The notes: generated from the letters alone by a model not told the origin. A stretch of DNA of 64,000 nucleotides from Escherichia coli (GCF_044324875.1 NZ_CP172185.1), one strand, 5' to 3'; shown: positions 20,678 through 23,635, counted from the first letter of the stretch. Numbers and translations: made by a program.

Positions 20678-21571
<894 letters not shown>

Positions 21572-21625
21572 TTACCTCATCAATCGCTTGTCGTTATATG
21601 TTGTGTTGTGAACATCTATCCATTT

Positions 21626-21649
21626 AGACGTCCAGATGTAAAGATGAAG
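21626..21649. promoter_or_regulatory. Tandem MetJ boxes (metF operator)
   Basis: Three tandem 8-mers agacgtcc/agatgtaa/agatgaag resembling the met-box consensus AGACGTCT, ~60-80 nt upstream of metF ATG. Confidence 0.6.
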
Positions 21650-21852
21650 GAAAAGCCGAGGGGCGTCAACCGAAAAATGACCAATGATGGTGAGGAAAAA
21701 TCAGGGAAGTTGAAAAAAACTCATCTTAATTAGAGGCGATAAAAGATTTCTCTATAGAGCAATCCACCTCGCACGTTTTGACTGATATTCTGACAACACA
21801 GCGACACCTGGGCTTATTCGAAAAACAACGTCCTGCCACCGGATGGTGATGC

Positions 21853-21889
21853 TAAGGCATCTGATTCGGCCTGCGCCCTCGCGTAGGCC
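21853..21889. repeat. REP-like palindrome downstream of the nucleotidase-like gene
   Basis: gattcggcctgcgccctcgcgtaggccgaatac: 8-bp inverted arms attcggcc/ggccgaat. Confidence 0.5.
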
Positions 21890-21949
21890 GAATACTGGAT
21901 CTGCAAAATCAACTGGTAACAAACAGATGAATCAACTCAATACGTACTT

Positions 21950-23503
21950 TTACTTGATATCTTTCACGCGCATACCGTTGATCTGTTCATCCGTGATGGT
22001 GTTACCCGCTTTGAAGTAATCAACCACGGCGTGATAAACGTAATAACCGCCCGTTGTGTTACGCGCTTTCCCTTCGGTAAAGGCGGTAAAACCATCTCCA
22101 CCATCAGCAAGGAAACTCTGAGTAGCAATGTGGTAAATCGTCGCATCTTCAATGGGTTTGCCATTCAGAGTCAGTGTGATTACCCGCTGACCAACCGGTT
22201 TGCTGCTGTCGTACTTCATTTCCAGGCCTTTCGATACCTGTAAAACGCCATTACTTAAACTTGCGCCGTGTTCCATCAAACTGCGTAATTGTTTACCTGT
22301 GAGATCCATCGTCACCAGTTCATTGGGGAACGGGAAGGTACTGATGACGCCGCCCATCGTAATCGCCCCTGCGGGGATCTCATTGCGAATGCCGCCAGAG
22401 TTGGTTAACGCCAATTGGGTGTTTTTACCCGCCGCTACCAGTAAAGCATCAGCCGCCAGGTTCCCGAGGGAAGCCGATTCACCATAGGCACGTTTTAATT
22501 CAACCGGCGATTTCGCGACCGTTTGTTGCACCACTTCATCAAGCTTTTTATTCCAGCCGTCGATCACCTGTTTCGTTTGCGGATCGGGCTTCCACTCATC
22601 GGCGTAAATGGTTTTAAGCTCGAAGTTTTTCACCGTAAAATCATGCGGCTTCTCTTTGTAGTCGAGGACCAGTTTGCCCACATCAATCCCGCCGCTGTCA
22701 GTGGAGAGGATGAGCGTATTGCCGACTTTAATCGGTTCCGGCGTACCCACATGTGCATGTCCGGTGATCAAAATATCCAGCCCTTTCACCTGACTTGCCG
22801 TCTGAATATCTTTATCCAACGCGCGACGCACATCGGTCCCTCCCATACTGGACTGGCGGGCCGGAACACCTTCGTGGATCAGGGCGACGGTCAAATCAAC
22901 CTTGCCTTTGAGTTCATCGATATAACGTTGTAGCCATTTAATTTCATCACGCGCCTCAATACCCACTCGCGTTGCCGCAGATACCGTGTCATTAAAGGCA
23001 AATACACCGTGCAAACCTATAACGCCTATTTTCACACCGTCTTTTTCGATGATGGTATAGGGCTTATCCCAGAATGATTTACTGCTGTTCTGATAAAAAA
23101 CATTGCCCTGCACAATCGGGAATTTTGCCTGACTCAACTGTAATAATGTGTTGTCCCAGCCGTGGTCAAATTCATGGTTGCCTATCGTGACGGCATCAAA
23201 CGGCATAGTATTCATAATATCGATAATAGCCTTACCTTTGGTCAGGCTGCTGATATAGGGCCAGGTAAAATAGTCGCCCGCATCAAAAAACCATGTCGCT
23301 TTATTTTTTGCTTTTTCTTGCTTAACCAGCGTAGTGATATTTGCCCAGCCGCCAATATCCCGTTTACCGTCAGCGATCCACGGCACTTTATAAGGCTCGA
23401 CATGTGCATGGAGGTCGTTGGTATAAATGATGGTGACATCTTTAGCGCAAGCCCAGAATGGCAGTGTTAATGCGATACCCGCAGCAAGTATTTTAATTTT
23501 CAT
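21950..23503 (-). CDS. Secreted calcineurin-type metallophosphoesterase / 5'-nucleotidase-family protein (UshA/CpdB-like)
   Basis: 517-aa ORF; N-terminal signal peptide [20 protein letters not shown]; metallophosphatase motifs in order DxH (NDLHAH), GD (DAGDYF), GNHE (GNHEFD), GH.H (ITGHAHV); C-terminal half consistent with 5'-nucleotidase substrate domain; RBS aaaggga upstream. Confidence 0.8.
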
Positions 23504-23635
23504 AAACAGTCCCTTTCAGTGAGATAAAGGATTGCTACATTACGTTCTGAAAGAGTTATTTATGTGAGAGTAATCACATCCACAGGGGAGCGTTGCCGGA
23601 CAAAATCAACGACCATGTGAAATCGTTGGTGATAT

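Follow-up and report, generated by a model that had tools for sequence, protein, structure and literature searches.

An accessory segment between metL and metF carries a divergent gene pair

The sequence analyzed herein is a 64-kb stretch of Escherichia coli DNA, which we refer to as the window. Between the metB-metL and metF-katG genes, comparison of the window with K-12 revealed an accessory segment that begins immediately past the stop codon of metL and extends to the metF promoter (Table 1). The GC content of this segment is 43-51%, as compared with 53-61% for its flanks. Two genes lie within it in divergent orientation. One encodes a member of the 5'-nucleotidase family; the other encodes a 376-aa partner that converges with metL and overlaps its 3' end by 37 nt (24730-24766). 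Judged by PGAP annotation of the nucleotidase, 1837 of 5426 complete E. coli genomes carry the gene and its segment. A search for inverted or direct repeats at the two termini of the segment (21719 and 24728) found none, and a search of Rfam across 21400-24900 returned no structured RNA or riboswitch at E <=1. A GC-rich, REP-like hairpin follows the nucleotidase gene; in K-12, a different REP-like sequence is present within the 197 bp that occupy the segment site.

The segment exists in two forms. In 659 of the 5426 complete genomes it is longer, and in a representative five-gene example (locus L004, 4410-8557) it additionally encodes a Tsx-like channel of 286 aa and two exported paralogs of the nucleotidase, of 516 and 539 aa. 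These extra genes are located between the 376-aa gene and metL, in the order hyp-nuc2-nuc3-tsx-like on one strand. The window contains the short, two-gene form, which lacks both the paralogs and the channel. Identity between the two forms is no more than 91.6% across their common 3.6 kb, and they therefore represent diverged alleles. A recent deletion of the long form as the source of the short one was excluded by this degree of identity and by the homology of the partner protein, which extends through its final residues.

The same chromosomal site and nucleotidase family are found in APEC strain BEN2908, where the region "GR 31 metL..metF" has been proposed, in silico, to function in nucleoside processing and transport (PLoS One 2026, PMC12928451). 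As described in the passages of that paper on GR 31, the BEN2908 region is of the long form, with a Tsx-like channel and three UshA-domain ORFs, whereas the window is of the short form. Carriers among our matches and in those passages include ExPEC, commensal B2 and EAEC strains (Nissle 1917, UPEC132, 042 and BEN2908).

Table 1. Features of the accessory segment and its genes, in coordinates of the window.
Feature	Coordinates	Strand	Basis or remark
Accessory segment, 3010 bp, replacing 197 bp of K-12	21719..24728	.	BLAST of window against K-12
GC-rich hairpin, ATTCGGCCTGCGC / GCGTAGGCCGAAT, REP-like, possible terminator	21864..21893	-	Inverted repeat I7; 57 nt past nucleotidase stop
CDS, predicted exported two-domain 5'-nucleotidase-family metallophosphatase (E. 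coli c4898 ortholog)	21950..23503	-	ORF, Pfam, 3IVD/3IVE match, PGAP name
C-terminal 5'-nucleotidase substrate-binding domain, 5_nucleotid_C (PF02872), residues 335-477	22073..22501	-	Pfam E 1.1e-38
N-terminal dimetal phosphoesterase domain, Metallophos (PF00149), residues 24-252	22748..23434	-	Pfam E 1.7e-11
Codon 81, TGG (Trp) at the conserved Gly of the family, GDYFTG to GDYFTW	23261..23263	-	Lineage-specific allele
Predicted signal peptide, codons 1-20, SPase I cleavage A20/K21	23444..23503	-	n/h/c-region features, conservation
Putative divergent promoter region, 132 bp, common to nucleotidase and partner	23504..23635	.	Length and sequence blocks conserved in about 15 enterobacterial genera
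Inverted repeat CTTTCAG-N27-CTGAAAG, candidate operator	about 23514-23554	.	Conserved across genera
CRP-box consensus TGTGAGAGTAATCACA, perfect	23563..23578	.	Consensus match and conservation
Inverted repeat CAACGA-N10-TCGTTG, candidate operator or 5'-UTR hairpin	23607..23628	.	Arms conserved across genera; also found as stem-loop
Partner gene ("cytoplasmic protein"), 376 aa, two N-terminal zinc ribbons and RNase H-like DDE-transposase-type fold	23636..24766	+	

The minus-strand gene encodes a predicted exported UshA/CD73-type protein

The nucleotidase gene is a single ORF with an ATG start that encodes 517 aa and is named "bifunctional metallophosphatase/5'-nucleotidase" by PGAP. It is an already known accessory gene of E. 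coli, having been annotated, crystallized and treated in the literature. Specifically, it is the same gene as c4898, whose product was crystallized with uridine (PDB 3IVD) and with cytidine (3IVE) in 2009. The window protein is 98% identical to these entries across residues 20-517, with 10 differences among 498 aligned positions, and its AF2 model superposes on them at TM 0.94-0.97. One of the differences replaces G81 of c4898 with Trp, and the nine others are conservative. The first nucleotidase of the long-form example (L004) differs from crystallized c4898 at a single residue (T483 versus I). The pyrimidine nucleosides in the crystals demonstrate binding, not hydrolysis. A literature search, for c4898, 3IVD and 3IVE and then in broader terms, yielded one in-silico description and did not find enzymatic, localization or expression data.

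The N terminus comprises a basic n-region (MKIK), a 13-residue hydrophobic core and an A-x-A cleavage site (ACA followed by K), and thereby displays the basic n-region, hydrophobic h-region and small residues at -3 and -1 of a substrate for Sec and SPase I. Among 96 full-length homologs, position -1 is Ala in every one and position -3 is A, V, S, G or L; the signal peptide is 19-23 residues long in all of them, yet occurs as 67 distinct sequences. The crystallized construct (3IVD) begins at residue 20. An N-terminal signal peptide with an AxA-like site was part of the original prediction and is recovered here, and from it we infer that the nucleotidase is exported to the periplasm. Processing as a lipoprotein by SPase II was considered and rejected. 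Because the lipobox (FWAC) is non-canonical and Cys19 is not conserved, being Ser or Asn in orthologs (WASA, WANA), cleavage by SPase I rather than lipidation is expected; a lipobox match is present in just 1 of the 96 homologs.

The ORF contains all five motifs that define membership in the calcineurin-like metallophosphoesterase superfamily (PF00149): D30-x-H32 (NDLHAH), G76-D77 (DAGDYF), G108-N109-H110-E111 (GNHEFD), H210 and G248-H249-x-H251 (ITGHAHV). They are complete and in canonical order, as had been predicted without a statement of the strand. When aligned to K-12 UshA, residues D30, H32, D77, N109, H110, H210, H249 and H251 fall upon its metal-binding and catalytic positions (D41, H43, D84, N116, H117, H217, H252 and Q254, respectively), and D113 falls upon the Asp of its catalytic dyad, Asp120. 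The metal and catalytic columns of this N-terminal domain are 85-100% conserved in an alignment of 222 domains drawn from 150 diverse representatives of the family.

The remaining C-terminal region, predicted to be about 200 aa in length, is real and carries the 5_nucleotid_C domain, so that it corresponds to the canonical substrate-binding domain; Pfam thus recovers both of the domains for which a search had been proposed. Its residues R373, F392, F464 and D470 align with R410, F429, F498 and D504 of UshA, where the equivalent positions serve in phosphate binding (Arg), base stacking (the Phe pair) and ribose binding (Asp). Throughout the family alignment the base-stacking pair is F or Y in >95% of domains and the Arg is present in 84%. 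The protein therefore displays the features of the 5'-nucleotidase (UshA/CD73) family, that is, PF02872 after a metallophosphatase domain together with the aromatic pair, Arg and Asp. Its fold matches 2Z1A, CD73 and UshA over the full length. Outside its own clade, the nearest proteins of solved structure are the Thermus thermophilus 5'-nucleotidase precursor (2Z1A, E 2.5e-45) and human CD73 (about 1e-31), with TM of about 0.8 and 23-27% identity; CD73 differs in being a GPI-anchored eukaryotic ecto-enzyme.

The protein resembles UshA in its signal peptide, two domains, metal ligands, His-Asp dyad, Phe-Phe clamp and phosphate-binding Arg, but is only 24% identical by alignment to K-12 UshA, a periplasmic 5'-nucleotidase and UDP-sugar hydrolase, and has H251 where UshA has Q254. 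Moreover, ushA is a core gene whereas the gene in the window is accessory, at a different locus and under different apparent regulation. Scores against curated models were below the cut-off in every case: UshA (NF007109, 147.5 bits versus 600), the 2',3'-cyclic phosphodiesterase CpdB (NF006938, 97.6 versus 486, and TIGR01390, 96.8 versus 883, each matching the N-terminal domain only), the NAD nucleotidase NadN (TIGR01530, 130.2 versus 436), the thiosulfohydrolase SoxB (TIGR04486, 149.1 versus 550) and a YfkN-like model (180 versus 1646). The Pfam domain NadN_nucleosid_C gave only E 0.14 on the window protein. Since all of these equivalog cut-offs were missed, the substrate is not fixed by sequence, in agreement with the caution voiced in the original prediction.

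The wider family comprises 22,801 representatives at E <=1e-3, and the nearest relatives outside the clade of the nucleotidase are 40-47% identical to it. Given this ceiling of 47%, the low identity to UshA and the missed cut-offs, the protein belongs to a distinct, biochemically uncharacterized clade within a very well known family. This placement supports the prediction of an additional exported enzyme of UshA/CpdB type, besides the core ushA and cpdB. Within the clade, orthologs are 87-98% identical across enterobacterial genera, which points to strong purifying selection. No PADLOC anti-phage model matched either the nucleotidase or the 376-aa partner.

A lineage-specific tryptophan replaces a family glycine

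The family feature GDxxxG, in which a Gly occurs four residues past the bridging Asp, is absent from the protein encoded in the window, where residue 81 is Trp. This substitution, which the original prediction had overlooked, is the sole residue of the protein that departs from the ortholog consensus. All 117 close homologs with the motif have Gly at this position, reading GD[YFC]F[TS]G. Across the diverse family, Gly accounts for 195 of 222 domains (88%) in this column; A, S, D, T, F and Q occur occasionally, and Trp never does. The loss of GDxxxG is specific to this allele and does not characterize the gene family. An exact 63-mer around codon 81 was found in none of the 5426 complete genomes, while 1208 of them matched with at least one mismatch. 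Public assemblies such as GCA_027274645.1 and GCA_027946735.1 do encode the identical Trp81 protein, for which the index lists 143 blocks. A sequencing error was excluded, given the identical protein in many independent public assemblies; the W81 allele is real and lineage-specific.

In the nearest complete genome, ECA64, codon 81 is GGG (Gly). ECA64 is only 99.0% identical to the window over 25 kb (window 10000-34999), yet the 3.5 kb encompassing the segment differ at just 2 nt, which suggests that the region has a mosaic ancestry. Each of the two changes is nonsynonymous and falls within the nucleotidase: one is W81 in the window and the other is I443 in ECA64.

By alignment, residue 81 is equivalent to G88 of UshA, and P90, two residues further on, is disulfide-linked to L424 of the C-terminal domain in 1OI8, according to the title of that entry. 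This nearby cross-link places the residue-81 loop at the domain-closure interface. The disulfide in 1OI8 was reportedly meant to trap the closed form of UshA. Because the loop that follows the metal ligand D77 would be at this interface, Trp81 may hinder closure or substrate access, and G81W may lower the activity of the enzyme in this strain.

A stronger version of this argument is that the allele is decaying or hypomorphic, with Trp81 blocking domain closure or substrate access and leaving little activity. The invariance of the Gly among close homologs, the absence of Trp from the family column, the isolation of Trp81 as the one non-consensus residue and the interfacial position of the loop in UshA would all be expected in that case. 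Yet the allele is shared by many assemblies of a lineage without additional disruptive mutations, the partner gene has remained intact, and some family members tolerate six other residues in this column. On balance, we regard a decaying allele, and with it a substantial loss of activity through G81W, as possible but rather doubtful. The naturally occurring W81 and G81 alleles constitute a ready pair for direct enzyme comparison.

The shared intergenic region contains a conserved CRP box

The nucleotidase and partner genes diverge from a short intergenic region whose length and sequence blocks are conserved (Table 1). A perfect match to the CRP consensus, TGTGAGAGTAATCACA, lies near its center and is the only one in the window, for which 0.08 would be expected. 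The box occupies the same position in other loci, those of Vibrio among them, with no mismatches in 27 of 38 and one mismatch in a further 9, whereas the 6 nt of its spacer vary freely. In shuffled sequence, a match with <=1 mismatch to the box was obtained in 0.45% of trials. Relative to the transcription start implied by a TAATGT -10 element on the nucleotidase side (conserved as TAAnnT), the box would be centered at about -40.5; relative to that implied by a conserved CAAAAT on the partner side, at about -42.5. This geometry, which is read from sequence together with the start positions, would fit class II CRP activation in both directions. A generic promoter and terminator scan returned no more matches than did shuffled sequence, so the promoter assignment rests on conservation.

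Two inverted repeats accompany the box. One, CTTTCAG-N27-CTGAAAG, brackets the predicted -10 element and transcription start of the nucleotidase; the other, CAACGA-N10-TCGTTG, is located just upstream of the partner start codon. In addition to a CRP-like box, the Vibrio intergenic region (L005, 5861-6000) includes a perfect palindrome, AACGTTTGCGCAAACGTT. This palindrome resembles operators of the LacI family (PurR/CytR type).

The partner resembles a domesticated transposase

When an alignment of the 376-aa protein was used to scan a single genome of each species, 35 partner loci were identified in about 15 enterobacterial genera. Wherever the upstream sequence was long enough (34 loci), a divergent nucleotidase ortholog was located 131-140 bp away. 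The pairing extends to Enterobacter and Vibrio, in unrelated genomic contexts. The partner is the less conserved of the two proteins, with 57-93% identity across genera versus 87-98% for the nucleotidase. Neither Pfam nor PADLOC contained a family match to it. Invariant Cys pairs form two zinc ribbons, the second of which is homologous to the ribbon of IS1 InsA (hhalign 95%, E 1.8e-8), and the C-terminal half of the predicted model adopts a DDE-type RNase H-like fold, a further likeness to IS1 InsAB'. A comparison of the partner with IS1 InsB by hhalign found nothing. AFDB contains relatives from Vibrio, Photobacterium, Proteus and Serratia, which bear the names "IS1 family transposase" or "cytoplasmic protein". 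D144, D201 and E247 are invariant. In the model, however, D201 maps to a low-confidence loop and strand beta-4 is not followed by an evident second catalytic Asp, so the three residues need not represent an intact DDE triad.

These resemblances raise the question of whether the nucleotidase is simply a passenger of an IS1-like mobile element, with the partner as its transposase and the pairing due to co-mobility. The InsA-type ribbon and DDE/RNase H-like fold, the different genomic contexts of the pair in E. coli, Enterobacter and Vibrio, and the lower GC content of the segment relative to its flanks could be accounted for in this way. However, terminal inverted repeats or target duplications were not found, and the element occurs in a single copy. 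The 132-bp promoter region keeps the same architecture, CRP box included, from locus to locus, the supposed cargo is far better conserved than the supposed transposase, and the canonical second catalytic Asp is not evident at its expected place in the model. We therefore consider passenger status very unlikely. The partner gene, which is intact in the window, differs from IS1 also in its lack of similarity to InsB and in always being paired with a nucleotidase. Its single-copy state, the lack of inverted repeats and the fixed promoter architecture speak for domestication of a transposase and against an active element.

A domesticated transposase might in turn have acquired a function related to its neighbor. 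We tentatively propose, as one possibility, that nucleotidase and partner constitute an undescribed module in which the IS1-derived partner is a dedicated regulator or sensor of CRP-dependent scavenging, acting via the intergenic repeats. The system that would be controlled comprises the nucleotidase and, in long-form strains, its two paralogs and the Tsx-like channel. The passages of PMC12928451 that deal with GR 31 do not mention the 376-aa partner, the CRP box or the W81 allele.

A probable role in nucleotide scavenging

Together, these observations make it probable, in our judgment, that the product of the gene is a dimetal phosphohydrolase with two domains, belongs to the 5'-nucleotidase (UshA/CD73) family, reaches the periplasm by the Sec route, is under catabolite control and most likely participates in nucleotide scavenging. 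By analogy with UshA, the N-terminal domain would hold two metal ions through D30, H32, D77, N109, H210, H249 and H251, with H110 and D113 as the catalytic dyad. The C-terminal domain would clamp the nucleotide base between F392 and F464 and hold the phosphate through R373. Closure or rotation of the domains would then bring the phosphate ester to the metals and the His-Asp dyad, releasing nucleoside and phosphate. Transcription would proceed from the CRP-cAMP-dependent divergent promoter, such that the gene would be switched on by a shortage of preferred carbon sources. Where related strains carry the long form, the enzyme would work with the two paralogous nucleotidases and the Tsx-like outer-membrane nucleoside channel.

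Scavenging and the degradation of nucleotide signals had both been put forward as possible roles; the context favors the former. A main role in the degradation of extracellular nucleotide signals, as for CD73, AdsA or CpdB/CdnP, would make the protein a host-interaction factor that acts, for instance, on host ATP or AMP to yield adenosine, or on cyclic di- and oligonucleotides. The fold is indeed common to CD73 and NadN, and ExPEC, commensal B2 and EAEC strains are among the carriers. Such a role nonetheless appears improbable to us: the pair occurs in Vibrio and in about 15 genera of Enterobacteriaceae, environmental and commensal alike, its CRP box is typical of catabolic genes, the nucleotidase is linked to a nucleoside channel, and its scores are far under the CpdB and NadN cut-offs. 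Scavenging is favored by the CRP box, by the Tsx-like channel and paralogs, and by the spread through commensal and environmental enterics; we infer nucleotide substrates and a scavenging role on this combined basis. Several points weigh against scavenging in the strain at hand, in that the window has the short form, the evidence for CRP control consists of a consensus match and its conservation, and Trp81 could cripple the enzyme.

As a discovery, the enzyme itself carries little weight, given that annotation, crystal structures and a literature discussion already exist. It is of modest value as a well-conserved accessory nucleotidase that is present in one third of E. coli genomes, including 042, Nissle 1917 and BEN2908. 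The better lead is its strict pairing with the partner across a CRP-box promoter, which could exemplify the domestication of a transposase into a regulator.
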